A DNA stretch of 64,000 bases from Gammaproteobacteria bacterium (GCA_023266115.1 JAHFRU010000001.1:271905-335904), one strand, 5' to 3'; counted from the first letter of the stretch, positions 2,961-37,594 are shown. Made by a program: numbers and translations. The notes: a model not told the origin generated them from the sequence alone.

Positions 2961-4267
2961 CAGTCGCCCACTCGACTGGAGCCAGCCTGTGGCTCCAGTC
3001 GTCCCGTCACGGAATATCCTGTATTCAAGCGCTCCCTGGCTCCAAGGTCGGCGTAAAGACGGGTCATCTCCGCAAAATACCGATCACCGCTGTAATGTCG
3101 TTCAACAAACAGGCGCGCCCTGCGGCCGAAGAATTCCACTTCGCTATCCGGCATTGAAGCAACTTCATCCAGACGGCTGGCCAGCGCTGCGGCATCACGC
3201 GGGGGAAACAACCAGCCGTTATCGCCGTCGATGACCATTTCCGGAATGCCGCCAATGCCGGCAGCAATGACCGGTTTGCCGCTGGCAAACGACTCCAGAA
3301 TCGCGAGAGACGCGTTCTCGTACCATTCCGACGGCACTACGACAGCACGTGCATTGCCGATCAATGAGGCCAGCAGGGCCGGCGGTACGTGATCGATGAA
3401 TTCCACCGCGATGTGCAGTTGGTCAGCGAGTGTCTGCAGAAAATTGCGTTCCGCTCCCCAGCCGACGATCTTGATCGCTGCTTTCGCCTGCGCCGCGGCG
3501 CGTATAAAAGTCGCGAGTCCTTTCTCGGGCGCGAGCCGGCCGAAATATAAAAAATACCTGCCCGGCTGGAAGGATGGTGTCCACAGCCGTTCGTCGAAGA
3601 AGTTACGGAGATGAACCAGTCGTTCGCCCGGCCATCCCCACGCAATAAATTTGTCAAACATAAACCGGCTGGGACATATCAGTCTGTCGATATGACGCTC
3701 ATAAAACCCTGCCCAGCGGTGAAACACGGACTCCATCGCGACCAGTGAACTCACCGCTGCTGAACCATGCAGGCAGCGCTTGCGGATCAGCGGCAACACC
3801 CGGCCGCCACGGCATTCTTCGCACACGCTGTTGCCATCGTACATTTTGTAGGCGGGACAGAGCAGCTTGTAATCGTGAGCGGTCATCACGATCGGCACAC
3901 TGCGGCGACCCAGTACCGGCAGGATCGCGGGAGAAATATGGTGATAGATACTGTGAATATGTACCACGTCCGGACTGTAACGATCGAGAAGACGGCTGAT
4001 GTTGGCGCGGGCCTCGCGTGAATACAGCACCTTGCCCGCCAGCCGCAGCCGGGTGGGCAACGAGTAGTCGCCGCCGAACTCGAGCTCATCGACGAAGAAT
4101 TCCTGCCATGGAGTAGCTAGGTTGTCGCGATGCTTCATGGAGAATACCGCCGTCTGCCAGCCGCGTGCCTGAAACAAACGATCCTGATCCAGGAATAACG
4201 CGTCGGAGCCGGCGCGGCGGTAGTGATAGTTATTGATCGAGAGGAGTCGCTTCACGCCGTTATTCAC
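2960..4267 (-). CDS. Glycosyltransferase family 4 (GT1/GT4 fold)
   Basis: The C-terminal motif EWYENASLAILESFASGKPVIAAGIGGIPEMV is the GT4 EX7E region. The likely start is the GTG at 4267 (VNNGVKRLLSINNYHYRR) or at 4255. The ORF-track start at 4315 would overlap the upstream gene. Confidence 0.85.
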   Translation of the reverse strand: MNNGVKRLLSINNYHYRRAGSDALFLDQDRLFQARGWQTAVFSMKHRDNLATPWQEFFVDELEFGGDYSLPTRLRLAGKVLYSREARANISRLLDRYSPDVVHIHSIYHHISPAILPVLGRRSVPIVMTAHDYKLLCPAYKMYDGNSVCEECRGGRVLPLIRKRCLHGSAAVSSLVAMESVFHRWAGFYERHIDRLICPSRFMFDKFIAWGWPGERLVHLRNFFDERLWTPSFQPGRYFLYFGRLAPEKGLATFIRAAAQAKAAIKIVGWGAERNFLQTLADQLHIAVEFIDHVPPALLASLIGNARAVVVPSEWYENASLAILESFASGKPVIAAGIGGIPEMVIDGDNGWLFPPRDAAALASRLDEVASMPDSEVEFFGRRARLFVERHYSGDRYFAEMTRLYADLGARERLNTGYSVTGRLEPQAGSSRVGD

Positions 4268-4284
4268 ACACTCGTTGTTCGCCG

Positions 4285-5043
4285 TTAAATCCGTAGACCG
4301 CCTTTCCACAAGCATCGATCGCCGGTGATGCCGGCCGTAAAACTATCTCGTCCATGCAGCACACGAGCGTCGTGGAAGAACACAGCATCGCCTTCATTGA
4401 GCCGGACCGCAAGCGGCAGTGACCGGTCGACGGTGTCCTGTAGAAAACAATGAAAGTTTTCCACGATGGCAAGCAGATCCGGCGATACCTGATTTCTCAT
4501 CGTATAATAATTCCACCGCAGAAACGGCCCGTCCGGAGGCGTAGCGATGATCGTCGATTCGACATGCACGCCCGCTTTATTAAATCGCACGATGGCCCCG
4601 GTCAGCATGGTCAGCAATTCGGGTCTTTCGGTCGCCAGCACCGACAGTAAACGTTGGCCGTCCAGAAACAGGGTTGCGCCGCCGCGCGGCGCGGCGCGGT
4701 GGCAGACCATGAATACGATCGGCGGCGGATCGTAAAGGTAGGCGCCATCGGTGTGCAACGGTTGCGCAGAACTGGAGTGGCGAAAACGTTGCGGGAATTC
4801 CGGGTTGAATTCAACGTCGGACCACAAATTCCCGGTCGCGAGGCCGGTCTTGACGTCCTCGTCCACGGGCACACGCTCGCATTGTTCTGCCAGCGCCTCG
4901 TCCCAGAATTCCCGGTGGCGACCCACCGCCGGATGCGTGCGCGCGACAACCAGCCGCGCCGTCCGGCAGGCGGCGGTGATACGTGCGCCGACATCCGGGG
5001 GGGAATCCAGCTTGCGCAGGTCAAGTCTACAGAACGCTTCCAT
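4285..5043 (-). CDS. TauD/TfdA-family Fe(II)/2-oxoglutarate-dependent dioxygenase-like protein
   Basis: The 252-aa product carries an HTDGAY-type motif (PLHTDGAYLYDPP) and a later His (FFHDARVLHGRD). This matches the TauD and clavaminate-synthase-like fold. A 3-nt spacer separates it from the upstream stop. Confidence 0.65.
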   Translation of the reverse strand: MEAFCRLDLRKLDSPPDVGARITAACRTARLVVARTHPAVGRHREFWDEALAEQCERVPVDEDVKTGLATGNLWSDVEFNPEFPQRFRHSSSAQPLHTDGAYLYDPPPIVFMVCHRAAPRGGATLFLDGQRLLSVLATERPELLTMLTGAIVRFNKAGVHVESTIIATPPDGPFLRWNYYTMRNQVSPDLLAIVENFHCFLQDTVDRSLPLAVRLNEGDAVFFHDARVLHGRDSFTAGITGDRCLWKGGLRI

Positions 5044-5046
5044 ACG

Positions 5047-6315
5047 TCAGTCCGCGACCCTGGCACTCTTATGGGATCGGTGCAAGGCTGTGCGGCCGGT
5101 CTGGTCAACCACCTCTGAAAATTGATCCACGCAATTTCGCATGGCCAGTAAATCGCGCTCCCCGACATCCGAATGCAACGGCAACGTGAGCAGGCGTCGG
5201 GCAAAATCGCCAGCGGCCGGGTGGGCGCCTGAACGCACGTAAGTCGCGGTGGCCGGAATCTCCGAGAGCAAACGACGATACATTCGCGACGGCCCCAGTC
5301 CTTGCTGCCAAAGGCTGGCAAACAATCGATCGCGTTCCGTTTCTGACCGCAGCAGCAACGGATACCGCCATAGCCGGTCGGTGCGTGTGGCCGTGCTGCA
5401 ATCGGCGGCGGCCATGCGCATGCTGTGCGTTGCGACATCAACCCAGGGTACGTCCGGCCCGCGCAGTATCGACTCGATGGTATCTTCGCGCCATCGCCCC
5501 GTACTTCTGTGGCGGTCGATCGCCTGTGGCAGGAGTCTGTGCAGACGGCGCGGAAACGGCTCGAGTTCCGTCAATTCACGATAGGAAATGGCGTCGACCG
5601 GGACTCTCGCCACACGTGTAAGAAACCGGTAAACCGCAGGTTGAATCGAGAGGTTGTAGAGTAAACAGTTAGCCCGATGCATGAGCCGCCTAACCCCGGT
5701 TTCGCTTCTATCGGCGGGCTGCGGGGGTAGCGCGTTCGCTGCGGTTGAGCCGAGTGTCTGCAGCAGAACTCCGCCGCGCCGCAGTGATACCGGCTTGCCA
5801 CGTCCGAAGCTGATAACAACCAGGTCGGCGCTCGAGCGGACTTGCATGTCCAGCGGGAAAGCGTGCGCGTGGTCTTCAATGAGTAACGGCCCGTCGCTGC
5901 CGAGCATGCGGCGCAGTGCCTGGTCGTTCGACGGGAGCCCGAGAAATCTGATCGACAGTAAGGCAACCGTGTGCCGGGTGATGGACCTTTCCACACTTAC
6001 AGGGTCGAGCCAGGGTAGCTCCGGTAGCGTGTCCGCGAGCACCGGCTGCACGCCGGCGAAGACCGCGGCGCTCACGACATCCGGACACGCATACGCCGGC
6101 ATCACCACTTCGGGGCGCGTCGTCGTAGCACGATTTGCCGCAAGTTTCAGCGCTGCTGCCAGCGCCGCCGTTCCCGAGCCGTACCAGTGGGCAAGATACC
6201 CCGGAAACTGCAGATTTGCCGCCGCGGACGAGGCCTTGTGCCCGGCCGACCGCGGACTGATGCCCCGCAACGGTACGCGTTCACCTGCCGGGCGCAACTG
6301 ACGCGGGATCATCAT
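5047..6315 (-). CDS. DegT/DnrJ/EryC1/StrS-family PLP-dependent sugar aminotransferase or dehydratase-like protein (divergent)
   Basis: The sequence SGTAALAAALKLA...VVMPAYACPDVVSAAVFAGVQPVLADT...LLIEDHAHAF...VISFGRGKPVS fits this fold. The proposed start MMIPRQ at 6315 overlaps the upstream stop as ATGA. The ORF-track start at 6354 is over-extended. Confidence 0.65.
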   Translation of the reverse strand: MMIPRQLRPAGERVPLRGISPRSAGHKASSAAANLQFPGYLAHWYGSGTAALAAALKLAANRATTTRPEVVMPAYACPDVVSAAVFAGVQPVLADTLPELPWLDPVSVERSITRHTVALLSIRFLGLPSNDQALRRMLGSDGPLLIEDHAHAFPLDMQVRSSADLVVISFGRGKPVSLRRGGVLLQTLGSTAANALPPQPADRSETGVRRLMHRANCLLYNLSIQPAVYRFLTRVARVPVDAISYRELTELEPFPRRLHRLLPQAIDRHRSTGRWREDTIESILRGPDVPWVDVATHSMRMAAADCSTATRTDRLWRYPLLLRSETERDRLFASLWQQGLGPSRMYRRLLSEIPATATYVRSGAHPAAGDFARRLLTLPLHSDVGERDLLAMRNCVDQFSEVVDQTGRTALHRSHKSARVAD

Positions 6316-8959: not shown

Positions 8960-10522
8960 TCATGCCCCGGACTCCATTTTATTCCGTCCGGGCCAGGCTT
9001 TCTTTTGCGCTTGACGCTTCGCAGTCTTTTTGATCGCGGGCGGCGGTTTGATCACCTGCTTATCGAGCAGCAGGTTCAGCGTGTAGCGGATGCCGAATCC
9101 GGTGGTATCGGTCGGTACGTGCGCCAGTCCGCCTTTATTACTACTGGCGCTCAGGTCGACGTGCAGCCAAGGGATATCCTTGCCGACGAAGCGGCTCAAG
9201 AAACGCGTCGCGAGGATGTGATCCGCCGTGCCGTCGAGGGCGCACTGCTTGATATCGGCGATGTCGCTGTCAAGCGCCTTGTCGTAATCGGCATCGGTCG
9301 GAAACGGCCAGACGCGCTCGCCGCTGTCGCGCCCGGCCGCAATCACGTCGGCCAGCATCTCGTCGCGATTGGTAAACGCGCCGCTGTAGGCGGTGCCCAG
9401 CGCATGTACGCAGGAACCGGTCAGCGTTGCATAATCGATGATCAGGTCCGGTTTGGCTTGTGAGGCGATCGCCAGCGTATCGGCCAGCACCATGCGGCCC
9501 TCGGCATCGGTATGCACCACTTCAATCGTCGTGCCGTTGCTCGCCGTCACGATGTCGTTTGGCTTGTAGGCCTTGGGGCCGACGTGGTTCTGCGCCAGAG
9601 CGAGCCAGCAGTCGACGGCGATGTCGGCCTTGATCCCGGTAAGCGCCAGCAGCGTGCCGAGCGCAACAGCGCTGCCGGCCATGTCTTCGTGCATGCCGTA
9701 CATGAACTTCGCCGGTTTCACGTTGACGCCGCCGGTGTCGTAACAAATACCCTTGCCGACCAGCGCCAGTTTTCGTTTGGCATGGCGCGGCCGGTATTGC
9801 AGATGCACAATGCCGGCATCCGCCGCGGCGCTGCCCTGCGCAACGGCGAGAAATGCGCCGGCCTTTTTGCGCTTTAATGCGGCGGTATCGAGAAACTGCA
9901 TGCGCCAGCCGTGTTGCCGGGTGAGCGTCGCAATACGTTTGCGATACATCGCCGGCGTCAGCTCGTTCGACGGCAGTATCGTCAGCTCGCGCGCAAGATT
10001 ATTACCGGCCGCCTCGGCCAGGGTACGGGCAAGATCGATTTGTTTGCCCACGCCGTGCAGTGCGACCGTGGCCAGGCGCTTCGGTTTCGGTTGCTTGCTT
10101 TTGAATTGCGGCAGCTCGGCCGATGCGGCGAGCAGCGCCGCCACCAGCGCCAGCGCCGCGTGTTCGGTGTCGGCGGGGGTTAGCCCGGCGAACAGTACAT
10201 CAATATTGGCGGGATCAGCGCCGAGCAGCGCCGCAACCGCCTTGCGCGCCAGTGTCAGCCGTTGGAACGCGCTGCTGTCCGCTGCCAGCCAGATGCACGC
10301 CACCCGGGTACCGGTACCGTTCGGCAGCTCCGTCACGAATGGCTCCGTCGTGCCCACCCGGTCGCCGAGGCGCTCAAAACGCTTCTTGATGATGTCTCGG
10401 TACGCAAAAACCGGCCAGGCCGGTTTGGCGTCGCTACACGGCAATACCACGATCAACGCGTCAATAGAATCAACGGCCTTTTCGGCCGGCGCGTTCAGGT
10501 TCTGTTTTACCTTGATTTTCAT
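8960..10522 (-). CDS. pepA: Leucyl aminopeptidase, peptidase family M17
   Basis: M17 signature NTDAEGRMVLADTL and the catalytic region VGKGICYDTGGVNVKP...HEDMAGSA. The product is 520 aa. Confidence 0.9.
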   Translation of the reverse strand: MKIKVKQNLNAPAEKAVDSIDALIVVLPCSDAKPAWPVFAYRDIIKKRFERLGDRVGTTEPFVTELPNGTGTRVACIWLAADSSAFQRLTLARKAVAALLGADPANIDVLFAGLTPADTEHAALALVAALLAASAELPQFKSKQPKPKRLATVALHGVGKQIDLARTLAEAAGNNLARELTILPSNELTPAMYRKRIATLTRQHGWRMQFLDTAALKRKKAGAFLAVAQGSAAADAGIVHLQYRPRHAKRKLALVGKGICYDTGGVNVKPAKFMYGMHEDMAGSAVALGTLLALTGIKADIAVDCWLALAQNHVGPKAYKPNDIVTASNGTTIEVVHTDAEGRMVLADTLAIASQAKPDLIIDYATLTGSCVHALGTAYSGAFTNRDEMLADVIAAGRDSGERVWPFPTDADYDKALDSDIADIKQCALDGTADHILATRFLSRFVGKDIPWLHVDLSASSNKGGLAHVPTDTTGFGIRYTLNLLLDKQVIKPPPAIKKTAKRQAQKKAWPGRNKMESGA

Positions 10523-10614
10523 TTAGAATATGCCGGGTTCACCTTGACCAAGGCCATTAAAACACAGATCATATCGCGCTCACGCGATTTCTGGTATCCA
10601 AGGTAAGCTGTCTC

Positions 10615-11619
10615 ATGAATAACACTGATAAGAAACGGCTGCTCCGCGACATGCTGTTTTCCCGGCGTTTCGAGGAGCACTGTTACGTAGGCTATGTCGA
10701 ACGCAAAATCGGCGGATTCCTGCACCTGTATCCGGGTCAGGAGGCCTGCGCCCATGGCGTGATGGCGGCAGCAAAGCCGGGATTCGATTATGTGATTACC
10801 GGCTACCGGGATCATGTCCACGCCATGCTGAGCGGCGCCGACCCCAAGGCCGTCATGGCCGAGCTCTACGCGAAAGAAACCGGCACCTGCAAGGGCCGCG
10901 GCGGCTCCATGCATATATTTGATGTCGAGCACCGCTTCATGGGCGGCTATGCGCTGGTCGGCGGGCCGTTTCCGCTGGCGGCCGGCATGGCCAAGGCCAT
11001 CAAGCTGAAGGGCGGCGAAGAGATCGCGATCTGCTTTCTCGGCGATGCCGCCAACAACCAGGGCAGCTTTCATGAGGCGCTGAACATGGCGTCGGTATGG
11101 AAACTGCCGGTGCTCTATGTCTGCGAAAACAATCTTTATGGTATCGGCACGCGCATTGACCGTTCGACGGCGGTGCTGGATCAGTACAAGCGCGTCGCCG
11201 GTTACAACATTCCATCCGAGCAGGTCGACGGCCAGGACATCGAGATCGTCTACAAAGCCGCGCAGAAAGCGGTCGATCATGTCCGTTCCGGCACGGGACC
11301 GTATTTTCTCGAGCTGATGACCTACCGCTATCGCGGCCACTCGATGTCCGATTCCAACACCTACCGCTCCAAGGACGAAGAGAAGGAGTGGATCGAGCGC
11401 GACCCGATCAACATCCTGCGCGAGCGTTTGATCAAGGCCAAGGTGCTGACGATGGCCGAGTTCAAGGCGATGGACAAAGAGATACTCGATGAAATAGACA
11501 ACGAAATCGTGCCGTTCGCCGAACAGTCGCCGGAACCGGACGTCGCCGAACTGGAGAAGTATCTGTTCGCCGAGAACGATCCCTGGGTAACGGGCGGTGC
11601 ACAGGGAGAGGCGAGCTGA
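10615..11619 (+). CDS. pdhA: Pyruvate (2-oxoacid) dehydrogenase E1 component, alpha subunit (TPP-dependent)
   Basis: The sequence reads YPGQEACAHGV...GGSMHIFD...LGDAANNQGSFHEALNMASVWKLPVLYVCENNLYGIGT...YRYRGHSMSD. Confidence 0.9.
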   Translation: MNNTDKKRLLRDMLFSRRFEEHCYVGYVERKIGGFLHLYPGQEACAHGVMAAAKPGFDYVITGYRDHVHAMLSGADPKAVMAELYAKETGTCKGRGGSMHIFDVEHRFMGGYALVGGPFPLAAGMAKAIKLKGGEEIAICFLGDAANNQGSFHEALNMASVWKLPVLYVCENNLYGIGTRIDRSTAVLDQYKRVAGYNIPSEQVDGQDIEIVYKAAQKAVDHVRSGTGPYFLELMTYRYRGHSMSDSNTYRSKDEEKEWIERDPINILRERLIKAKVLTMAEFKAMDKEILDEIDNEIVPFAEQSPEPDVAELEKYLFAENDPWVTGGAQGEAS

Positions 11620-12599
11620 TGGCCGAGATACGCTTCTGGGAGGCGATCCGCCGTGCCCATGACGAAGAGATGGCGAACGATCCGCTGGTGATCGCGATGG
11701 GCGAAGACATCGGCGTCGCCGGTGGCACCTACAAGGCGACGCAAGGGCTGTACGACAAATACGGCCCTGAACGGATCATCGACACGCCGATTTCAGAGAA
11801 TGGCTACACCGGCCTCGGTATAGGCGCGTCGTTTCTCGGCGTGCGGCCGATCATCGAGATCATGTCGGTCAACTTCGCCTGGCTGGCGCTGGATCAGATC
11901 GCCAATTCCGCCGTCAAGGTGCGTTACATGTCCGGTGGCCAGCTCACAGCGCCAGTGGTGATCCGCTCACCGGGTGGCACCGCGCATCAGCTGGGCGCGC
12001 AGCATTCGGCGCGCATGGAAAAGGTATTCATGGGCATCGCCGGTCTAAGAGTTGTCACTCCGTCGACCCCGCGCCAGGCCTACGGCATGCTGAAGTCCGC
12101 CGTGCGCTGCAACGACCCGGTGTTCATCTATGAACACGAGCTGATGTACAACATGAAGGGCGAGGTGCCTGACGCTGAATTCTTCCATCCGCTGGTAGGC
12201 TCGGAGGTTGCGCGCGAAGGCAAGGACGTGACGCTGTTCGGTTACAACATCTCGGTGCACTGGTGTCTGGAGGCGGCGAAGCTGCTGGCCGACAAGCACG
12301 GCATCAATTGCGAGGTCGTTGACCTGTACTGCTTAAGCCCGCTGGATCGGGCAGGCATTAAAAAGTCGGTATCGAAGACGCATCGTGCAATCATCGTCGA
12401 AGAGGCCGAACCCGCCGTGGGCGTAGGCGCGGAGGTCATGGCGATTATCAATGAAGAATGTTTCTTCGAACTCGACGCCGCGCCGAAACGCGTCTCCGCC
12501 GTCAATATCCCGATCCCCTACAACCACGCCCTCGAAAAAGCCACGATCCCGCATGCCAAGGATGTCGTGAAGGCGGTGCGGGCGATGATGGGGAAGTAA
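11619..12599 (+). CDS. pdhB: Pyruvate (2-oxoacid) dehydrogenase E1 component, beta subunit
   Basis: It is coupled to pdhA by a TGATG overlap. The sequence reads IAMGEDIGVAGGTYKATQGLYDKYGPERIIDTPISENGYTGLGIGAS... Confidence 0.9.
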   Translation: MAEIRFWEAIRRAHDEEMANDPLVIAMGEDIGVAGGTYKATQGLYDKYGPERIIDTPISENGYTGLGIGASFLGVRPIIEIMSVNFAWLALDQIANSAVKVRYMSGGQLTAPVVIRSPGGTAHQLGAQHSARMEKVFMGIAGLRVVTPSTPRQAYGMLKSAVRCNDPVFIYEHELMYNMKGEVPDAEFFHPLVGSEVAREGKDVTLFGYNISVHWCLEAAKLLADKHGINCEVVDLYCLSPLDRAGIKKSVSKTHRAIIVEEAEPAVGVGAEVMAIINEECFFELDAAPKRVSAVNIPIPYNHALEKATIPHAKDVVKAVRAMMGK

Positions 12600-12635
12600 A
12601 GGTATTAGTGACGGTAGTAACCGCCGGCTGAATAG

Positions 12636-12700
12636 TGATCCCCTCACCCCGACTCTCTCCCTGTGGGAGAGGGGGGAAGACAGGGTGGGGCGCAACCAGT
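12636..12700. repeat. REP-like palindromic element (cccctcacccc...ctctccctgtgggagagggg)
   Basis: An inverted repeat ctctccc/gggagag sits within a C-tract/G-tract palindrome. The same module recurs at 20745-20785, 22785-22825 and 38265-38320. Confidence 0.6.
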
Positions 12701-12821
12701 CTGAATTTGGTGTCGGTGAATGATTAAAGCGTCCCTTCTCCTTTAGGGAGAAGGACACGACTGCATGGATGCAGGAGGTCGAGCAACGCAGGAGCAGTTG
12801 CCGGGGATGAGGGATAGTTAA

Positions 12822-12974
12822 CTAGGGAAGCTCTGATGTGTCGTCATTCCGGGCGGAGCGTAGCGGAGACCCGGAATCCAGCGCTTTCGAAACAGGGTGT
12901 TACTGGATTCCCGCGAAGTTCATGCCCGGAGGGTACGGGAATGACAACAAAATGATTAATCAGAGCTTCCCTAG
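12822..12974. mobile_element. Miniature inverted-repeat element, family 1 (~150 bp, 16-bp perfect TIR CTAGGGAAGCTCTGAT / ATCAGAGCTTCCCTAG)
   Basis: Perfect terminal inverted repeats are visible. The internal hairpin modules are gtcattccgggcgg...cccggaatcc and ggattcccgcgaag...gggaatgac. A second copy lies at 37442-37594 in the opposite orientation. Confidence 0.75.
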
Positions 12975-13140
12975 AAGTTTGTTCCCTCACCCCGACCCTA
13001 CCCCCAGGGAAATCCTAAGGGAGAGGGGGAACGCGCGTAGGATGGGTGCAGCCGCAGGCGCAACCCATCAGAACACTGGATTCCTGCTTGTGCAGGCACG
13101 ACTAGCAACGGCAGAACTAAAACGATAAACAGCTGACCCG

Positions 13141-16100
13141 ATGTCTCAACCCTACACAATCAAAATGCCGCAGCTCTCCGACACGATGACCGAAGGTGTG
13201 GTCGTCAGCTGGGAGAAGAACATCGGCGACAGGATCGAGCGCGGCGACATCGTCGCGACTGTCGAGACCGACAAGGCCATCATGGACGTTGAGGTGTTCC
13301 GCGAGGGCTATCTCTCGGGCCCGCGCGCGGCCGTCGACAGCGTCGTGCTGGTTGGTGGCGCGCTAGCCTATCTGGTAGCCAGCGCGAACGAGGTTGTCGC
13401 GGAAGCCGGCGCGGCGCCGGTGGCGTCCGGCGATGAGGAAGCATCCGCAGCACCCGCCGCCGCATCGGCCAGCGCCGCGCCGCAGGCATCCGCCGAACCC
13501 GAAGGCGTCACCCACATAATCAAAATGCCGCAGCTGTCGGACACGATGACCGAAGGTGTTGTCGTTGAATGGCAGAAGCAGGTTGGCGACAAGATCGAGC
13601 GCGGTGACATCGTCGCCAGCGTCGAGACCGACAAGGCGATCATGGACGTCGAGGTGTTTCGCGAGGGCTTTCTGTCCGGCCCGCTGGCCGAGGCCGACAG
13701 CGTGATTCCGGTAGGCGCTGCCATGGGTTATCTGGTCGAGGCCAGGGCGCAGGTGCAGAGCGGCGCGATGGCGCCCGTCGCCGCTGCGGCCGCAGAGCCG
13801 CAGAAGAAAAAGAAGACCGCCGCGTCGACATCATCGGCGACTACAGCCGGTACGCGTCCCGCGTCGCGCCCGAAGAGCAAGCTCGCGACACCGTATGCGC
13901 GCAAACTCGCCGGCGAGACGGGCGTCGATCTCAACATGCTGGCCGGCAGCGGCCCGCGCAACGTGATTGTCGGCGCCGACGTGCATCGCACCGCGCCGGT
14001 CGTGCCGGCGGGCGCAGCGTTCCCGGTCGTTGAAGTGCCCGGTGCCGGCCGGCCGATGACCTCGCTGGAGCGCAACATTGCGCAGGCCATGAGCGGCGCG
14101 CTAAGCATGCCGACATTCCGGGTTAGTCTGAACGCGCAACCCACGGCACTGATCAGCGCGGCGAAGAAGGCCGGCATCTCGGTCTCGGTCGCGATCGCCA
14201 GGGCCTGCGCGCTGGCGATGCAAAAACACCCGAACATGAACTGGGCCTATCAGCCGGTCGACAAACTCGTCGAGCGCGCCAACGTCGATATCGGCGTGGC
14301 CGTCGCCGCCGACGATGGCGGGCTGGTGGTGCCGATACTGCGCAACTGCGAATCGCGCACGCTGGCTGAGCTCAATGCCGACTGGAGTGACCTCGTCCCG
14401 CGCGCGCGCAAGCGCCGCCTGAAGCCGGTCGAATTTCAAAACCCGACGTTCATGGTGTCGAACATGGGCATGCTCGGTGTGACGTACTTCGATGCGATTC
14501 CAACGCCGGGCACTGCCGCGATACTTGCAATCTCGTCAGCCGATGAGCGGGGCATGCCGCTCACGATCACCGCGGATCACCGCGTCGTCAACGGAGCGGA
14601 TGTGGCCATGTATCTGAACACCCTGAAGCAGTACATCGAACAGCCGGACGGCTGGATGGGCGCGGGCGGTCCGGCGATCCCGGCCGGCAACTGGAACTAC
14701 GATGTCGTCATCATCGGCGGCGGCCCCGGCGGCGAAGACTGCGCGCGCGAACTTGTCGAACACGGCCTCAAGGTCGCGATGATCAACGATGCGCCGTTTC
14801 CCGGCGGCGAATGTCTGTGGCGCGGCTGCATTCCGTCCAAGGCGTGGCGTGCCGCGGCCGATCGCATCCGCGACCGCGTGCATGACGCGCGCCTCGGCAT
14901 CAAGGGCACGACTACCGCGAAGCTTGACTGGAAGATGCTCGAAAAAACCCGGCGCGGCGTGCTCGAAACACGCGGCGCGATGGCGCTGAAGACCGATACC
15001 AGCCTCAAGATCAAGTTCATCCAGGGCTTCGCGCGTTTCGAAAACGATCACACCGTGTTCGTCGATACCTCCGGCAATCAGAAGGACCCGCATGCGCGCG
15101 CGCCGCAAGGTGCCGGAAAGAAAGGGCAACGCATCACATTCGGTTGCGCGGTCATCGCAACCGGCGCGCCGCCGTTCGTACCGCCGATCCCCGGCGCGGC
15201 TGAAGGCCTCAAGTCCGGCGGCGTGCTCACCTCCGATACCGTCTGGTTCCTGAAACAGGCGCCAAAGAAACTCGCCATCGTTGGCGGCGGTGCAATCGGT
15301 GTCGAGATGGCGCAGATTTTCCAGGACTTCGGCGCGCAGGTCACGCTGGTCGAGGTGCAGGAGCGCATCCTTGCCGAGGTCGAACCCGAGGTCGCGAAGA
15401 ATCTCGCCACGATACTGAATGACGATCCACGCCTGACCGTGCACACGGCTGCGAAGGTCGAAAAGATCAGCGGCAAGCCGGGCAGGATGGAGCTGACTTT
15501 CAAGCCCGCCGAAGGCCGCGCGAAGAAACTTGCCGTGGATTACGTGATCATGGCCACCGGCAAGCGTCCGGTGCTCGATCCACTAAACCTCGCCGCCGCC
15601 GGTGTCGCCATCGACAAAGGCGTGATCAATGCCGACGCCTCGTGCCGCACCAGCATGCCGCATATCTTCGCGGTCGGCGATGTGATTGGCGGCTACATGC
15701 TCGCGCATACCGCCGGCCAGCAGGGCCGCGTCGCCGCCGCCACCATCAGCGGCGAGTCCGCAAAATACGATCAGGACAAGGACTGCGGCGTGATCTTCAC
15801 GCGCCCGCAGGCCGCGTTCGTCGGCCTGTCGGTTGCACAAGCCAAGCAGAAAAACATCGACGCCGTCGAAGTGAAAATGCCGATGAGCATCGACGCCAAG
15901 GCAATGATCACCGGCGAAACACTGGGCATGATTAAACTCGTCGCCGACAAGGCCAGCCGCCGCATCATCGGCGTGCACTTCCTCACCGACCACGCCGACA
16001 CGCTGATCGGCGAGGCCGTGATGATGGTCGCGGGTCAACTGACGCTCGACCAGGTCGCTCACGCCATCCACCCGCACCCGACCCAGACCGAACTCTTCGG

Positions 16101-16164
16101 CGAAATGGCTCGCCGGTTGCTGTCGCGCCTGCGGCGTTCGCAAAAGATCGCGGTGAAAAAGTAG
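13141..16164 (+). CDS. Fused dihydrolipoamide acyltransferase (E2) and dihydrolipoamide dehydrogenase (E3) in one 1007-aa polypeptide
   Basis: It is a single uninterrupted ORF. It has two lipoyl domains (..VETDKAIMDVEVFREGYLSGP.. twice) and a peripheral-subunit-binding domain (ATPYARKLAGETGVDLNMLAGSGPRNVI). The E2 catalytic core carries DHRVVNGA. A short Gly/Pro linker (GAGGPAIPAGNWN) follows. The E3 part has an FAD-binding motif (YDVVIIGGGPGGEDCA), the redox disulfide CLWRGCIPSK, a second Rossmann motif (LAIVGGGAIGVEMAQ) and a C-terminal HPHPTQTE. Confidence 0.85.
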   Translation: MSQPYTIKMPQLSDTMTEGVVVSWEKNIGDRIERGDIVATVETDKAIMDVEVFREGYLSGPRAAVDSVVLVGGALAYLVASANEVVAEAGAAPVASGDEEASAAPAAASASAAPQASAEPEGVTHIIKMPQLSDTMTEGVVVEWQKQVGDKIERGDIVASVETDKAIMDVEVFREGFLSGPLAEADSVIPVGAAMGYLVEARAQVQSGAMAPVAAAAAEPQKKKKTAASTSSATTAGTRPASRPKSKLATPYARKLAGETGVDLNMLAGSGPRNVIVGADVHRTAPVVPAGAAFPVVEVPGAGRPMTSLERNIAQAMSGALSMPTFRVSLNAQPTALISAAKKAGISVSVAIARACALAMQKHPNMNWAYQPVDKLVERANVDIGVAVAADDGGLVVPILRNCESRTLAELNADWSDLVPRARKRRLKPVEFQNPTFMVSNMGMLGVTYFDAIPTPGTAAILAISSADERGMPLTITADHRVVNGADVAMYLNTLKQYIEQPDGWMGAGGPAIPAGNWNYDVVIIGGGPGGEDCARELVEHGLKVAMINDAPFPGGECLWRGCIPSKAWRAAADRIRDRVHDARLGIKGTTTAKLDWKMLEKTRRGVLETRGAMALKTDTSLKIKFIQGFARFENDHTVFVDTSGNQKDPHARAPQGAGKKGQRITFGCAVIATGAPPFVPPIPGAAEGLKSGGVLTSDTVWFLKQAPKKLAIVGGGAIGVEMAQIFQDFGAQVTLVEVQERILAEVEPEVAKNLATILNDDPRLTVHTAAKVEKISGKPGRMELTFKPAEGRAKKLAVDYVIMATGKRPVLDPLNLAAAGVAIDKGVINADASCRTSMPHIFAVGDVIGGYMLAHTAGQQGRVAAATISGESAKYDQDKDCGVIFTRPQAAFVGLSVAQAKQKNIDAVEVKMPMSIDAKAMITGETLGMIKLVADKASRRIIGVHFLTDHADTLIGEAVMMVAGQLTLDQVAHAIHPHPTQTELFGEMARRLLSRLRRSQKIAVKK

Positions 16165-16226
16165 CAGATTGTCCACGGCCGGGAAAGCCCGGGCCTTGAA
16201 CGACGATTCGGTGGTATTACCCGCCT

Positions 16227-16328
16227 GTCATTTCGAGCCTGGTCCCGAGCGCAGCGAGGGAGCACGCGAGAAATCCGTGTCTCGAACGAGCGTGAAAGAC
16301 ACGGATTTCTCCCTGCGGTCGAAATGAC
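16227..16328. repeat. Dispersed palindromic repeat, family 3 (GTCATTTCGAGCC...GGTCGAAATGAC)
   Basis: Outer inverted repeat gtcatttcgagcc / ggtcgaaatgac with an inner hairpin gagaaatccgtgtc...gacacggatttctc. A second copy lies at 20929-21040 in the same orientation. Confidence 0.7.
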
Positions 16329-16445
16329 ACCGATCCAAGTCGGAATGACACCGACCCAAATTGGGTTAACTGCGTGATTCCCGCCTTAAAACGGTTACCA
16401 CTCTCCAAACGCGTCGAAGCTAAGTGAAGCCTGGCCGGTAACACG

Positions 16446-19400
16446 GTGCCAGCCGCCAATGTCTCACGCCGCCGCCTCCCCGGGTTTACACGGCGGCCAC
16501 GAAAAGCCATTATGGCCGTCAGGGGTTTCTTCGACAGGTGTTCGCGCATGTCCAGGCTGTCGCATACGACGGTAACGGAAATATTCGCCGCGCTGGCGCC
16601 CTCCGGGCTCGGGGTTGCCTATGCCGATCTGGCTGGCACGATTCTCGACGTCAATCCATCGTATTGCCGAATGGTCGGCTATTCACGGGAGGCGCTGGTC
16701 GGGCGCCGTATTTCAGAGATCACCTCTCCAGATGATGTCCGGAACGACATCCATGGTTTTCAGGAACTGGTTTCCGGGCACGTCCCGAGCTATCGCGTCG
16801 AAAAGCGTTATCTGCGCAAGGACAACACCGTTGTCTGGGCATCGGTGCTGGTGCTGCTGATCAAAGGAGACAACGATGCCCCCGCCAACATGCTCGCTCT
16901 TATCGAAGACATCACCGATCGCAAGCGGCTCGAAAGCGAGAAGCAGACCATGGAGCTGCGCTACCAGACGCTCTTCAACCAATTGCCGAACAGCGTTGTG
17001 CTGATCGACGCCGCTACGAGGATCATCGGCTTCAACGACGAGGCGCTGCGCGTTTACGAATACACGCCAGAGGAAATGTTGCAGCTGTACGTCAAGGATT
17101 ACTCGCTGGCCTATAACGAGGAGCGGATACAGGAAATCATGCAGCGGCTGCTGGCCACCGGCCGGGCCGATTTTCTGTCGCGGCATAAAACGAAAAATGG
17201 ACGCGTCCTCGATGTAAAAGTGTCCGTGCGCGCCATCCGGCTGCCGAATGAGGCGCCTCTTTTCCAGTGTGTTTTTCATGACATCACCGCCATCAAGCAG
17301 GCCGAGCACGCGCTGACGCAGGAAAAGGCGAACCTCAACGCCATCATGGACAACCTGCCACACCTGCTGTGGCTGAAGGATCGCGAAGGGCGCTACATCG
17401 CGGTCAATGCGCCTTTCGCGGCCTCGGCCGGCAAGGCGAGTCCACAGGAAATACTGAATAAAACCGACTTCGATCTCTGGCCGCATGAGCTCGCCGAGAA
17501 ATTTCGCGCCGACGATGCGGATGTCATGGCGACGCGCCGGCGTAAGCAGCTGGAGGAATATGTGCTGGATAAAGGCCGGTATATCTGGGTCGAGACCAAC
17601 AAGACGCCGATCCTGGACAGCGACGGCAAACTGCTCGGCACCGTAGGCTTTGCGCGCGACATCACCGCCAGCAAACAGGCCGCGGAAGCCCTGCGGCAAA
17701 GCGAAGAAAGGTTGCGGCAGGCGACCCGCGCGTCCCGGGCCGGCATCTTCGATCACGATTACCTCACCAACATGCTCTACTGGTCTCCCGAGCTGCGGGA
17801 CATCTACGGCCGCGCGCCCAATGACCCGGCGACATTTGACGCATTCATCGCGCATATTCATCCGGACGATCGCGAGCGGGTCATGACGAGCATCCGCAAT
17901 GCTCACGATCCGGCCATCACCGGGACCGACGATCTGTTTTTCGTCGAGTTCCGGCTGGTGCGCACCGATGGCACGACGCGCTGGGTGATCGCGCGTTCAC
18001 AGGCCTTATTTGAAGGCCAGGGCGTGGCACGACGTCTGGTACGCACCATCGGCGCCATTGTCGATATCACCGCGCGCAAACGGGCGGAAACCGCACTGCG
18101 CGACAGCGAGGAGCGTCTGGCGCTCGCCACGCATGCGGGCGGTGTCGGCATCTGGGACTGGAATATCGACGGCGGTGAGCTTGTCTGGGGCGACGGTATG
18201 TTCCAGCTGTATGGCATACGGCGCGAGGATTTCGCGGGACGCTATGACGTGTGGTGCCGCAGCTTCCACCCGGATGATCGGGCGCGGGCGGAAGCCGGGA
18301 TACAAGCCTGCGTTCTGGACAAGAAATCTTTTGATACCGAATTCCGCATCGTCCGTCCGGACGGTGGAATCCGGCATATCAAGGCCCACGGCGAACTGGT
18401 CTGTGACGAACACGGCCGCGTCCAGCGCATGGTTGGCACCAACTGGGACATCTCCGAACTCAAACGCGCCGAGGAGGCGATGCGCGAGGGTCACGAACGG
18501 TTGCAGCAGGCGCTGGAGGCGAGCAATACCGGCACCTGGCGCGTTGATCTACGCAGCAATATGGATTCACGCGACGCCTCGCTGAACCGCATGCTTGGCC
18601 TGCCGGGGGAGCCAAGCACGCAGTCCGTGGAAGACTGGTTTTCGTATCTGCATCCCGACGAGGCGCCGGCGCTGCACGAGGCCTGGCAGCGCGCGATGGA
18701 AACCGGGCTGTATGACGTGGAGCATCGCCTGATCCGTCGCGACGGCACGGTGCTATGGGTGTACGACCGCGGCGTCATGGTGCGCGATGGCGCTGGTCAA
18801 TTGAGTTACGCGATCGGCGCGGCCATGGACATTACTGAGCGCAAGCAGGCCGAAGAGACCATGCGGCTGGCGGCATCGATCTACCAATCCAGCATGGAAG
18901 CCATCCTGGTGACCGACGAGCGCAACCGCATCGTCGACGTCAACCTGGCCTTCACGCGCATTACCGGCTATACACTGTCCGAGATTACCGGCCAGGACCC
19001 CAGCATATTGCAGTCCGGCCGGCACGACGACGCGTTTTACCGCGAGATGTGGCGCGCCATTCACGACGACGGTCACTGGCAGGGCGAAATCTGGGACCGG
19101 CGCAGGAACGGCGACGTGTATGCCAAATGGGTCAATATCAGCGTCATCCGGCATGCGGACGGCAGCGTGTACCGCCACATCGCGCAGTTCTCCGACATCA
19201 CCGAAAAAAAGCGTCAGGACGAATTGATCTGGACGCAGGCCAACTACGATGCGCTCACCAGCCTGCCGAACCGCCGGTTGTTCCAGGACCGCCTCGAAGT
19301 GGAAATCCGCAAATCCAATCGCACGGGTTCGCCGATCGCGCTGCTGCTGATCGATCTCGACCGCTTCAAGGAGATCAACGACACGCTGGGCCACGCCAAG

Positions 19401-20516
19401 GGCGACGTGCTGTTGATCGAGGCCGCACGCCGGATCAACGCCTGCGTGCGCGACGCCGACACCGTCGCGCGCCTCGGCGGCGATGAATTCACGGTGATCC
19501 TGCCCGAGGTGGCCGACACAACGGACGTCGAGCGCGTTGCGCAGGAAATCATCGAGGAACTGAACAAACCGTTCTCCCTCGGCGGCAAGGAGTTCGGCTA
19601 CATCTCCGCGACCGTCGGCATCACGCTGTGCCCCGATGACGCGCAGGACTTCGACAGCCTGATGAAACACGTCGACCAGGCCATGTATCGCGCGAAAGGC
19701 GAAGGACGTAGCCGCTTCGGCTACTTCACGCCGTCGATGCAACAGGAGGCGCAGGAAAAACGCGCGCTGACTGATGACCTGCGCCAGGCGCTGGCCAGAG
19801 GCGAACTCGAGGTGTACTACCAGCCCATCGTCGACATGAAACACCGCAGGATCGTCAAGGCCGAGGCGCTGCTGCGCTGGAAACACCCCGCGCGCGGCAT
19901 GATCGAGCCCGACGTGTTCATTCCGCTGGCGGAAGAATCCCGCCTGATCGTCGACATCGGCGAATGGGTGTTCGGCGAGGCGTGTGCCCGCGTCGATCAA
20001 TGGCGCCGGCAGTTCGGCACTATCATCCAGGTCAGCATCAACAAATCCCCGGTGCAATTTGAATTCACCGCCGGCAAATCGTGGGCGAACATACTCGAAC
20101 GCCACGGTCTGCCCGGCAACAGCATCACCGTCGAAATCACCGAAGGCCTTCTGCTCAAGGAATCAACCAAGATCAAACAGCACCTGCTGGAATTCAGAAA
20201 CAACGGTATCGAAGTATCGATCGACGACTTCGGCACCGGCTTCTCGTCGCTGTCGTACCTGAAACAATTTAACATTGACTACCTCAAGATCGACCGCTCG
20301 TTCGTGCGGTATCTGGCCGGCAACGACAACGACATCGCGCTGGTCGAGGCCATCATCGTCATGGGCCGAAAACTTGGCATCCGCACCGTCGCCGAAGGCA
20401 TCGAAACCCAGGCCCAGCACGACCTGCTCGCCTCCTTCGGTTGCGACTACGCGCAGGGATTCCTCTATTCCCCCGCGGTGCCGTCGCAGGAGTTTGTGCG
20501 GTTGCTGGGGGAGTGA
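16446..20516 (+). CDS. Multi-PAS (about 7 PAS/PAC) GGDEF-EAL signalling protein (diguanylate cyclase/phosphodiesterase)
   Basis: Seven successive PAS/PAC-like modules each end in ...DIT(A/E)RK(R/Q)AE. A GGDEF domain (RLGGDEF) and an EAL domain (EALLRW...EITEG...DDFGTG) follow. The true start may be an internal ATG at 16511 or 16548. Confidence 0.9.
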   Translation: MPAANVSRRRLPGFTRRPRKAIMAVRGFFDRCSRMSRLSHTTVTEIFAALAPSGLGVAYADLAGTILDVNPSYCRMVGYSREALVGRRISEITSPDDVRNDIHGFQELVSGHVPSYRVEKRYLRKDNTVVWASVLVLLIKGDNDAPANMLALIEDITDRKRLESEKQTMELRYQTLFNQLPNSVVLIDAATRIIGFNDEALRVYEYTPEEMLQLYVKDYSLAYNEERIQEIMQRLLATGRADFLSRHKTKNGRVLDVKVSVRAIRLPNEAPLFQCVFHDITAIKQAEHALTQEKANLNAIMDNLPHLLWLKDREGRYIAVNAPFAASAGKASPQEILNKTDFDLWPHELAEKFRADDADVMATRRRKQLEEYVLDKGRYIWVETNKTPILDSDGKLLGTVGFARDITASKQAAEALRQSEERLRQATRASRAGIFDHDYLTNMLYWSPELRDIYGRAPNDPATFDAFIAHIHPDDRERVMTSIRNAHDPAITGTDDLFFVEFRLVRTDGTTRWVIARSQALFEGQGVARRLVRTIGAIVDITARKRAETALRDSEERLALATHAGGVGIWDWNIDGGELVWGDGMFQLYGIRREDFAGRYDVWCRSFHPDDRARAEAGIQACVLDKKSFDTEFRIVRPDGGIRHIKAHGELVCDEHGRVQRMVGTNWDISELKRAEEAMREGHERLQQALEASNTGTWRVDLRSNMDSRDASLNRMLGLPGEPSTQSVEDWFSYLHPDEAPALHEAWQRAMETGLYDVEHRLIRRDGTVLWVYDRGVMVRDGAGQLSYAIGAAMDITERKQAEETMRLAASIYQSSMEAILVTDERNRIVDVNLAFTRITGYTLSEITGQDPSILQSGRHDDAFYREMWRAIHDDGHWQGEIWDRRRNGDVYAKWVNISVIRHADGSVYRHIAQFSDITEKKRQDELIWTQANYDALTSLPNRRLFQDRLEVEIRKSNRTGSPIALLLIDLDRFKEINDTLGHAKGDVLLIEAARRINACVRDADTVARLGGDEFTVILPEVADTTDVERVAQEIIEELNKPFSLGGKEFGYISATVGITLCPDDAQDFDSLMKHVDQAMYRAKGEGRSRFGYFTPSMQQEAQEKRALTDDLRQALARGELEVYYQPIVDMKHRRIVKAEALLRWKHPARGMIEPDVFIPLAEESRLIVDIGEWVFGEACARVDQWRRQFGTIIQVSINKSPVQFEFTAGKSWANILERHGLPGNSITVEITEGLLLKESTKIKQHLLEFRNNGIEVSIDDFGTGFSSLSYLKQFNIDYLKIDRSFVRYLAGNDNDIALVEAIIVMGRKLGIRTVAEGIETQAQHDLLASFGCDYAQGFLYSPAVPSQEFVRLLGE

Positions 20517-25233: not shown

Positions 25234-26475
25234 ATGCCTGCCCAATCCCTGATTACTCGCTTTCTGCGCCCGAGATTGATCGAAGCGCTTGCAGACACGC
25301 CGGTCGTTCTGGTACATGGTCCTCGCCAGTGCGGTAAGTCGACGCTGGTGCAAACCGTCAAGGGGTATACCTACATCACCTTCGACGATGAGGTGCAACT
25401 TGCGGCGGTGAAGGCTGACCCGGTAGGTTTTGTGGCGGATTTACCGGACAGGGTGATTCTTGACGAGGTCCAGCGCGCACCGGGGCTGTTCGCTACGCTG
25501 AAGGCGGCAGTGGACCGCGATCGTCGGCCGGGGCGTTTCATTTTGACTGGTTCAGCCAATGTGCTGCTAGCACCGAAATTGTCGGATTCGCTCGCCGGAC
25601 GGATGGAGTTATTGCGGCTTCACCCCCTGGCGCAGTGTGAGGTCGCGGGGGGCATGCCCCATTTTCTCGATGTGCTTTTCGCGGGTGGGTTCAAGGCGCG
25701 GAAGTACGACCGCCTGGGTGCGGAGTTGGCGGAGCGCATCGTCGCAGGTGGATATCCGGCAGCGTTGGCACGCGGCTCCGGCCGTCGCCGGCGTGAATGG
25801 TATCGGGCTTACATCGAAGCACTGGTGCAACGCGATGTACGGGAGTTGGCGCGCATCAGCGCATTGGATGCATTGCCACGGTTGCTGCAACTCGCTGCGG
25901 GCCAGTCGGCACGATTGCTGAACGTCAGCGAACTAGCCGCGCCGTTTCAATTGAGCCGGCCGACCATTCGCGACTATGTGACGCTGCTGGAACGCATATT
26001 TGTGATCGAGATGCTCCCGCCGTGGCACAGCAACCGGCTGAGTCGATTGGTGAAGACTCCAAAATTGCACATGGGCGATACGGGTCTTATAGCGAGTCTG
26101 CTTGGCGTAGATGCAGCAGCGCTAGCGAAGGATCGTGCGTTGCTCGGCCAGTTGTTGGAGACATTCGTATTTCAGGAGCTGCGGCGGCAAGCAAGTTGGC
26201 ATGAGGACGCCATCGGTTTCCATCATTTCCGTGACAAGGACGGCTACGAGGTTGACATTGTACTGGAACGCGAGGGGCGGGACATCGCGGGAGTTGAGAT
26301 CAAGGCGGCGGCGACGACAGTCACGGAGTCGGATTTCCGCGGGTTGCGAAAACTCAAGGGCACAAGCGGCGCGCGGTTTGTCGCTGGTGTCGTGTTATAC
26401 GATGGAGAGAGCGCTGTACGGTTCGCAGATGATTTATTCGCAGTGCCAATCAAGGCGCTCTGGGGTATGAAATGA
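25234..26475 (+). CDS. AAA+ ATPase with DUF4143 domain (COG1373)
   Basis: Walker A motif LVHGPRQCGKST and Walker B motif RVILDEVQ. The C-terminal part is DUF4143-like. Confidence 0.85.
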   Translation: MPAQSLITRFLRPRLIEALADTPVVLVHGPRQCGKSTLVQTVKGYTYITFDDEVQLAAVKADPVGFVADLPDRVILDEVQRAPGLFATLKAAVDRDRRPGRFILTGSANVLLAPKLSDSLAGRMELLRLHPLAQCEVAGGMPHFLDVLFAGGFKARKYDRLGAELAERIVAGGYPAALARGSGRRRREWYRAYIEALVQRDVRELARISALDALPRLLQLAAGQSARLLNVSELAAPFQLSRPTIRDYVTLLERIFVIEMLPPWHSNRLSRLVKTPKLHMGDTGLIASLLGVDAAALAKDRALLGQLLETFVFQELRRQASWHEDAIGFHHFRDKDGYEVDIVLEREGRDIAGVEIKAAATTVTESDFRGLRKLKGTSGARFVAGVVLYDGESAVRFADDLFAVPIKALWGMK

Positions 26476-37445: not shown

Positions 37446-37594
37446 GGAAGCTCTGATTAATCATTTTGTTGTCATTCCCGTACCCTCCGGGCATAAACTT
37501 CGCGGGAATCCAGTAACACCCTGTTTCGAAAGCTCTGGATTCCGGGTCTCCGCTACGCTCCGCCCGGAATGACGACACATCAGAGCTTCCTTAA
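37442..37594. mobile_element. Miniature inverted-repeat element, family 1, second copy (TIR TTAAGGAAGCTCTGAT / ATCAGAGCTTCCTTAA)
   Basis: It is near-identical to 12822-12974 in reverse orientation and has perfect 16-bp TIRs. Confidence 0.75.

Follow-up and report, generated by a model that had tools for sequence, protein, structure and literature searches.

A conserved gene predicted to encode a covalent E2-E3 subunit of a pyruvate dehydrogenase complex in Gammaproteobacteria

Introduction

The 2-oxoacid dehydrogenase complexes serve in textbooks as examples of multi-enzyme assembly through non-covalent contacts, in which the dihydrolipoyl dehydrogenase (E3) is a shared and exchangeable component. 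A stretch of 64,000 nucleotides from a gammaproteobacterium (GCA_023266115.1, JAHFRU010000001.1:271905-335904; "the window" below means this whole stretch, and positions are counted from its first letter) carries at 13141-16164, on the plus strand, one open reading frame (ORF) in which the acyltransferase (E2) of such a complex runs directly into an E3. This locus raises the question whether the two enzymes are indeed made as one polypeptide and, if so, to which complex the fused chain would belong and how it could be built into a core. From the gene, its operon and its relatives it is concluded, with a probability of about 0.8, that the ORF encodes the E2-E3 subunit of a three-gene pyruvate dehydrogenase complex consisting of E1alpha, E1beta and E2-E3.

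Results

Domain composition of the fused protein

The ORF encodes a protein of 1007 amino acids (P0001; calculated mass 106.1 kDa) and its only stop is the terminal codon; an identical sequence of a fused E2-E3 protein is present in NCBI and ENA. An ORF scan and searches with Pfam and NCBIfam agree with the initial annotation of this DNA, which had described a single uninterrupted frame containing a complete E2, with two lipoyl domains, a binding domain and a catalytic core, followed by a complete E3. All features of the protein given below lie on the plus strand.

The N-terminal part contains two copies of the Pfam domain Biotin_lipoyl. Lipoyl domain 1 (about residues 4-79, 13150-13377) carries the lipoyl lysine K45 in the motif ETDKA, and is predicted by AlphaFold2 (AF2), which was applied to single chains only, to form a beta-sandwich with a predicted local distance difference test score (pLDDT) of about 80-88. 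Lipoyl domain 2 (about residues 123-199, 13507-13737; Pfam match 127-195) carries K165, again in ETDKA, and both lysines are invariant in 60 homologues. The peripheral-subunit-binding domain follows at residues 248-281 (13882-13983; E3_binding, PF02817, 7e-11, 42.6 bits against a cutoff of 23.7), with a conservation of 0.71-0.78 and the invariant residues P251, R254, A257 and G271. The acyltransferase catalytic domain comprises about residues 300-507 (14038-14661; 2-oxoacid_dh, PF00198, residues 305-506, 7e-47); D479, H480, R481 and S440 are invariant, the residues S440, H480 and N484 are kept, and the closest relatives of the E2 half in the PDB are E2p chains of the mitochondrial type, which form 60-mers.

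After the junction at residues 503-520 (14647-14700), the C-terminal half is an E3-type flavoprotein disulfide reductase (residues 511-1007, 14671-16161), in which Pfam recognizes Pyr_redox_2 (residues 520-862, 1.5e-65), Pyr_redox (710-783) and Pyr_redox_dim (883-989). The motifs quoted in the initial annotation could all be located, namely DHRVVNG at 479-485, GAGGPAIPAGNWN at 507-519, GGGPGG at 526-531, CLWRGCIPSK at 558-567, GGGAIG at 715-720 and HPHPTQTE at 977-984; within the E3 half, GGGPGG, the cysteine pair C558/C563, GGGAIG together with E738, and the dyad H979/E984 are invariant. Known E3 chains in the PDB match this half at E values of about 1e-60, and Foldseek retrieved E3 structures from many organisms with E values of 1e-44 to 1e-47 and target-normalised TM-scores of 0.87-0.90. 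Neither the sequence search nor the fold search yielded a PDB chain that spans both the E2 half and the E3 half.

The fusion is found in a large family

The reality of the fusion was approached by a scan at the species level, with one genome per species, which gave 333 matching stretches, and the best 80 of these 333 were analysed as related loci. All 80 are nearly full-length and span at least residues 5-973 of the 1007. A stop codon or frameshift at the junction, which would split the frame into two ordinary genes, was looked for and was absent from each of these independent genomes (80/80 in frame and free of stops). The junction DNA of the present locus, 14647-14700, likewise has no in-frame stop, and it contains no homopolymer run. 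The search for full-length homologues in related genomes was equally productive: more than 120 proteins were found with 65-92% identity, 98-100% coverage and the same set of domains, with lengths of 1003-1140 amino acids (median 1020) and originating from NCBI, JGI, ENA and Logan assemblies. Complete genomes (3.11 and 2.96 Mb) are among the sources and include those of Sulfuriflexus mobilis (3.11 Mb, WP_126453847.1) and Ectothiorhodospiraceae bacterium 2226. Across these genomes the covalent joining of E2 and E3 proves to be genuine and conserved, and it is under purifying selection.

The named hosts belong to Sulfuriflexus, Thiohalobacter, Thiohalomonadaceae, Thiogranum, Granulosicoccaceae, Chromatiales and Thiotrichales, groups which we take to be largely sulfur-oxidising Gammaproteobacteria. 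When 1.84 billion proteins were clustered at 50%, the whole close family collapsed to a single full-length representative (P0012), which gives the impression of one rather tight clade. The architecture as such is already known as a kind and is widespread in public databases, so that the novelty claimed in the initial annotation was too high. It should be noted, however, that the public names of the family, RefSeq included, convey little or only part of the function ("FAD-dependent oxidoreductase", "hypothetical protein", "dihydrolipoamide dehydrogenase"), and one protein of the same 90% cluster from a gammaproteobacterial metagenome-assembled genome is annotated as "hypothetical protein".

The operon contains genes for a pyruvate dehydrogenase E1

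Upstream of the fusion gene and on the same strand lie the genes for the E1 alpha subunit of a heterodimeric-type pyruvate dehydrogenase (10615-11619, 334 amino acids; Pfam E1_dh, 1.3e-86) and for the E1 beta subunit (11619-12599, 326 amino acids; Pfam Transket_pyr and Transketolase_C, with no lipoyl domain detected by Pfam in E1beta). The presence of a heterodimeric alpha/beta E1 had been proposed before, and both genes indeed exceed curated cutoffs of the pyruvate dehydrogenase type: E1alpha reaches 414.9 bits with NCBIfam TIGR03182 (PDH_E1_alph_y; cutoff 393.85) and E1beta 369 bits with PRK09212 (cutoff 321). The gene order E1alpha-E1beta-fusion is retained at every related locus for which upstream DNA is available. 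A second homologue of E2 or E3 was found neither within 6 kb at any of the 80 related loci nor elsewhere in the 64-kb window, and thus the fused gene is the operon's sole source of E2 and E3.

The junction is an end-to-end join of fixed length

The initial annotation had regarded the sequence between the two enzymes (GAGGPAIPAGNWN) as a short Gly/Pro linker. In an alignment of 120 homologues it turned out to be neither generic nor flexible in appearance; it is a highly conserved join of fixed length. Residues 501-520 have a conservation of 0.84, as high as that of the catalytic domains, whereas the three true inter-domain linkers of the protein have values of 0.20-0.34. The separation between W505 and Y520 is exactly 14 residues in 117/120 homologues, compared with length differences of tens of residues in the other linkers, and W505, G510, P514, G516, W518 and Y520 are invariant. 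The family consensus across the junction reads IEQPExWMGPxGPAIPEGxWDYDVVVIGGGPGGEDCAR.

Comparison with separate enzymes defines both ends of this join. The alignment with human E2p (647 amino acids) stops at P502, which corresponds to human P642 and is five residues short of the C-terminus, and therefore residues 503-507 (DGWMG) take the place of the five residues that form the canonical C-terminal tail; in the family this position is occupied by ExWMG with its invariant W505. From the other side, the match to the stand-alone E3 P0122 (487 amino acids, 58% identical) begins at residue 511 of the fusion, with TTVIPEGDWD. These alignments indicate an end-to-end fusion of a full-length E2 with an E3 that has kept its native N-terminal tail, with only about three variable residues in between.

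The AF2 models are in line with this picture. The true linkers (residues 96-117, 212-238 and 285-297) are predicted to be disordered with pLDDT values below 50, whereas the junction is predicted to be ordered, with block means of 71 and 86. Modelling the catalytic domain and E3 alone gave a pLDDT of 84.8, a predicted template modelling score (pTM) of 0.76 and junction blocks of 80 and 78. As the E3 half makes up 69% of this model, a pTM of 0.76 hints, short of proof, that the two halves hold a defined relative orientation. The demonstration that the join is linker-less, conserved and of fixed length is an addition of the present analysis.

The E3 half belongs to a distinct subtype

Several sequence marks set the E3 half apart, i.e. 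an invariant GGECLWRGCIPSKAWR that replaces GGTCLNVGCIPSK, the motif GGGPGGEDCAR, a short insertion at about residues 641-667 and an invariant basic C-terminal helix, ARRLLSRLRR (EMARRLLSRLRR). By these marks it is a divergent flavoenzyme of the dihydrolipoyl dehydrogenase type and of a distinct subtype, here called the CLWRGC subtype after its redox motif, the recognition of which is added here. In E3 enzymes an acidic residue that closes the second Rossmann strand leads to the use of NAD rather than NADP, and at this position E738 suggests NAD as the acceptor. Relatives of the subtype are repeatedly tied to lipoyl domains or to operons of 2-oxoacid dehydrogenases.

Two of these relatives deserve a description of their own. 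P0122 (L081 7280-8743) is a stand-alone E3 of the CLWRGC type with the N-terminal tail IPEGDWD and a C-terminal helix RRLLARLRR. P0124 (L083 1895-4288, 797 amino acids) combines in one chain a lipoyl domain with an E3 of the CLWRGC type (48% identical to the present E3 half) and ends in a CMD/AhpD-like domain; it resembles a fused form of the mycobacterial Lpd-lipoyl-AhpD peroxidase relay, and a gene with a weak Pfam match to DsrE lies nearby.

Weighing of alternative explanations

The simplest alternative would be an error of sequencing or assembly, by which a missed stop codon or a frameshift joined adjacent E2 and lpd genes. Neighbouring E2 and lpdA genes are the common arrangement and may share one frame with as little as 12 nt between them, and a few database entries of the family are truncated or frameshifted fragments (P0121, P0127). 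However, the same error would have to recur at all 80 independent loci and in more than 120 full-length proteins from four sources, complete genomes among them, and the junction is conserved in sequence and lacks the homopolymer runs mentioned above; with a stop-free junction here and in 80/80 loci an artefact was rejected as practically negligible. A second possibility accepts the ORF and regards the fusion as a mere translational convenience, in that free E3 would arise from an internal start at M506 or from cleavage of the junction by a protease, after which a complex of the canonical kind would assemble. M506 does occupy the position at which a stand-alone E3 starts (P0122 begins with MG..., about nine residues ahead of IPEGDWD), and the codons upstream of it (P-E-x-W) can resemble a ribosome-binding site. 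Yet the DNA upstream of M506, GACGGCTGG, contains no Shine-Dalgarno sequence, and position 506 is L or I in 16/120 homologues while W505 is invariant, so that the constraint appears to act on a hydrophobic residue and not on a start codon; an internal start at M506 was therefore discarded as a conserved feature. In addition, the junction is predicted to be ordered, and a conserved join of fixed length would be needless if the halves were to separate. A release of E3 is thus regarded as very unlikely.

More serious is the idea that the C-terminal half is a specialised disulfide reductase of the CLWRGC subtype that works on the lipoyl arms with another acceptor or in another role, for example in redox defence like the mycobacterial Lpd-DlaT-AhpD-AhpC system. 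It draws on some of the points that weigh against the assignment of the gene to a pyruvate dehydrogenase complex. The best NCBIfam family of the E3 half is lipoamide_DH (TIGR01350), which it matches with 376.0 bits and hence under the cutoff of 408.8; the context of its redox motif is unusual, and the W-R pair within it is invariant, as is the basic C-terminal helix. The gene of P0122 lies next to, and is transcribed away from, a complete operon of canonical composition (E1a-E1b-E2-E3-lipoate-ligase) with an E3 of its own, and therefore the CLWRGC subtype could have a specialised role; this suggests that it may do more than serve as a housekeeping E3. P0124, in which the subtype shares a chain with a lipoyl domain and an AhpD-like CMD domain, has also to be counted here. 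The E2 half adds further points against the assignment: it reaches only 297.7 bits with the family of pyruvate dehydrogenase E2 (TIGR01349; cutoff 445), and about 14 residues before the DHR motif are missing relative to human E2p. The TIGR01349 score is lowered by the fused and shortened architecture, and as a consequence the substrate specificity rests on the E1 genes. The placement of the E3 dimers discussed below, which we infer, belongs to the same side of the balance. Nevertheless, several observations speak for a genuine E3. No other E3 is encoded within 6 kb at the 80 loci, and a pyruvate dehydrogenase complex without E3 activity cannot turn over; moreover, the His-Glu dyad and the acidic E738 of the NAD type are invariant, and dihydrolipoyl dehydrogenases account for all of the best matches by family and by fold. 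A specialised reductase in place of E3 is accordingly considered rather unlikely, and the E2-E3 subunit of a pyruvate dehydrogenase complex is retained as the preferred reading of the gene.

Origin of the fusion and distant E2-E3 fusions

The fusion probably arose by loss of the stop codon of an E2 gene located directly upstream of an in-frame lpd gene. E2 followed directly by lpdA is the common arrangement on plasmids and chromids. On plasmid p1 of Azospirillum brasilense Sp7, in a region without PLSDB annotation, the two genes are separate ORFs in the same frame and only 12 nt apart (L090, E2 at 2329-3669 and lpd at 3682-5079), so that the loss of one stop codon would be enough for a fusion. 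Plasmids of Azospirillum, Rhizobium and Rhodococcus had at first appeared to carry fusions, because they gave tblastn matches in a single piece; in the Azospirillum case, which was inspected, the match consists of these separate ORFs and tblastn reads through the stop, and the plasmid candidates were dropped.

Real fusions do exist at a greater distance. The search at 50% clustering also gave nine full-length E2-E3 proteins of 838-928 amino acids that are 30-36% identical to the present one (P0128, P0129, P0132, P0135, P0138, P0163, P0164, P0191 and P0201). They share with the present family the order of the modules in one chain; they differ from it by a single lipoyl domain, by a redox motif of the canonical form CLNxGC and by linkers that are unconserved and differ in length. 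The genes for P0128 and P0138 lie downstream of E1alpha/E1beta genes, like the present fusion. Two of the nine are archaeal, P0191 from a member of the Promethearchaeota (L085 6001-8745, 914 amino acids) and P0163 from a member of the Bathyarchaeota (916 amino acids), and both are about 30% identical; the P0191 gene has no E1 genes nearby and is close to genes for ESCRT-II, a MIT/AAA ATPase and SecY. The single-chain architecture is thus recurrent and may have evolved more than once, archaea included. The distant bacterial and archaeal fusions are a discovery of the present analysis.

Intergenic region and surroundings of the operon

The spacer between the E1beta gene and the fusion gene has a length of 541 bp, compared with 25-180 bp in most related loci. 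It contains, outside the enzyme genes, an insertion of 153 nt at 12822-12974 that resembles a miniature inverted-repeat transposable element (MITE) and has perfect terminal inverted repeats of 16 nt (CTAGGGAAGCTCTGAT). A second copy, about 97% identical and in the opposite orientation, is present at 37442-37594 with unrelated flanks, and the 16-mer had zero matches in 100 shuffles of the window. Two copies of a unit resembling repetitive extragenic palindromic (REP) sequences (CCCTCACCCCGAC...GGGAGAGGGGG) lie on either side of the MITE-like element, at 12641-12675 and 12984-13029. Together, the insertion and the REP-like units account for the unusual length of the spacer. No Rfam family matched in 10000-17000, and scans for promoters and terminators gave no signal above chance.

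The operon is flanked by unrelated genes, a divergently transcribed gene for an M17 aminopeptidase and a gene for a PAS-GGDEF-EAL protein. Three large signalling proteins are encoded in the window (16446-20516, 46639-48807 and 54391-57363), i.e. two PAS-GGDEF-EAL proteins (1356 amino acids, and 990 amino acids with a DAHL domain) and a CHASE2-adenylate/guanylate cyclase. From about 24000 to 45000 the G+C content is 0.53-0.60, compared with about 0.60-0.64 in the first 20 kb, and the GC skew is strongly positive from about 24 kb onwards. This stretch has many short ORFs, several of which were tested and had no Pfam match, and an AAA_14/DUF4143 ATPase is encoded at 25234-26475; it may be a genomic island.

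Discussion

Proposed reaction cycle and assembly

If the fused protein is the E2-E3 subunit of a pyruvate dehydrogenase complex, E1 would decarboxylate pyruvate and acetylate the lipoyl arms, the E2 core would pass the acetyl group to CoA, and the attached E3 would re-oxidise both dihydrolipoyl arms of the chain with NAD+. In enzymes of the E3 class the His-Glu dyad acts across the dimer interface, and therefore the activity of H979/E984 should require the pairing of two fused chains. The chains would thus be paired via their E3 halves. The retained and conserved subunit-binding domain would then serve E1 alone. In the Geobacillus complex E1 and E3 compete for this domain; one consequence of welding E3 to the C-terminus of E2 would be that this competition is removed, another that the ratio of E3 to E2 is fixed at 1:1. 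A fixed stoichiometry and E3 dimers between tethered chains had already been expected in the initial annotation; both expectations are reasonable, and the estimate of space given below strengthens them.

It is less obvious where the E3 dimers could be accommodated. In canonical cores the C-terminal tail of E2 plugs into a subunit across the two-fold axis, and in the fused protein the E3 dimers would most likely be rigidly fixed where E2 trimers meet across the two-fold axes, or close by. There would be as many E3 dimers as two-fold axes (30 in a 60-mer, 12 in a 24-mer), and together with a rigid connector this makes a placement on the two-fold contacts the most economical model, as far as the sequences and the single-chain models can indicate. 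The interior of a canonical cage would not offer the space: sixty E3 halves need about 3.9e6 cubic angstroms, and the cavity of a canonical 60-mer E2 cage, with its diameter of 118 angstroms, offers about 0.86e6. A canonical closed 60-mer cage with internal E3 is thus impossible by volume, an argument against a canonical core holding the fused E3 that is added by the present analysis. Either the chain would pass out of the shell via the two-fold bridges, or a core of different construction would be formed. It is tentatively proposed, as somewhat less likely than not, that the fusion forms a non-canonical core, a "trimer-dimer fusion" cage, in which E3 dimers act as struts that link E2 trimers and all binding domains are left for E1; the struts would sit on, or replace, the usual knob-and-socket contacts at the two-fold axes. 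To our knowledge, there is no structural or assembly study of a natural E2-E3 fusion, and the invariant junction and the size of the family (at least 80 species-level genomes) make it a good target for cryo-electron microscopy and for the engineering of protein cages.

The fusion also matters for genome interpretation. As the public names are uninformative and both halves score under the NCBIfam equivalog cutoffs, metabolic reconstructions may miss the E2, and automated pathway reconstructions of these sulfur oxidisers may wrongly score it as absent.

Comparison with known systems

The closest precedent comes from an autotrophic sulfur- and iron-oxidising proteobacterium, Thiobacillus ferrooxidans, for which Powles and Rawlings in 1997 reportedly described a pyruvate dehydrogenase in which E2 and E3 form a fused subunit whose gene follows pdhA and pdhB. 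Its PdhC is reported to belong likewise to a three-gene pdh cluster with a heterodimeric E1 and an E2 fused to E3. The present family has the layout of this cluster, with a single E2-then-E3 gene downstream of E1alpha/E1beta and no separate lpd in the cluster; unlike the T. ferrooxidans protein, the present fusion comes from an uncultured gammaproteobacterium. The genome paper on Acidithiobacillus ferrooxidans lists pyruvate dehydrogenase as three genes, AFE3068-70 (PMC2621215), which is consistent with such a fusion. The supplements of that paper contain no relevant entry, and a full-text search of the open-access literature found no article on natural pyruvate dehydrogenase E2-E3 fusions.

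Canonical complexes with an alpha2beta2-type E1, such as those of Geobacillus stearothermophilus and mitochondria (PDB 1EBD, 1B5S, 6CT0), have the same type of E1, the same lipoyl, binding and E2 catalytic domains and the same E3 fold. In these complexes a 60-mer of E2 binds E1 or E3 non-covalently, whereas in the predicted fusion protein E3 is covalently attached to the C-terminus of E2 without a flexible linker. The stoichiometry would be fixed at 1:1, and the binding domain would presumably be used by E1 only. In addition, the present E2 lacks the stretch of about 14 residues before DHR, and CLWRGC stands in place of the canonical CLNVGC. The Neisseria protein P64k/Lpd (PDB 1OJT, 1BHY, 5U25), which is among the best matches of the E3 half (E values of 1e-57 to 1e-63), is likewise an E3 that is covalently joined to a module of the complex; there, however, a flexible linker adds no more than a lipoyl domain at the N-terminus, and both an E2 core and a binding domain are lacking.

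An artificial parallel is provided by engineered 60-mers of E2p for which a "locking domain" that forms dimers was placed on the C-terminus of E2p; the domain resides inside the cage and stabilises the shell from within (PMC8113551). One such nanoparticle (PDB 8EQN) is among the matches to the E2 half, and the design has in common with the present fusion that a module that forms dimers is attached to the E2p C-terminus. The engineered locking domains are small and fit into the cage, whereas an E3 of 53 kDa per chain cannot. That natural cores can depart from the canonical cage is indicated by actinobacteria, whose E2p is said to be trimeric, as described by Bruch and colleagues in 2021. OdhA/Kgd of Corynebacterium and Mycobacterium is an E2o-E1o fusion; unlike the present E2-E3 chain it joins E1 to an E2 catalytic domain, and it belongs to a different lineage. 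Taken together, OdhA/Kgd and the trimeric actinobacterial E2p are nevertheless precedents for a change of core architecture that accompanies the fusion of components or an altered C-terminus of E2.

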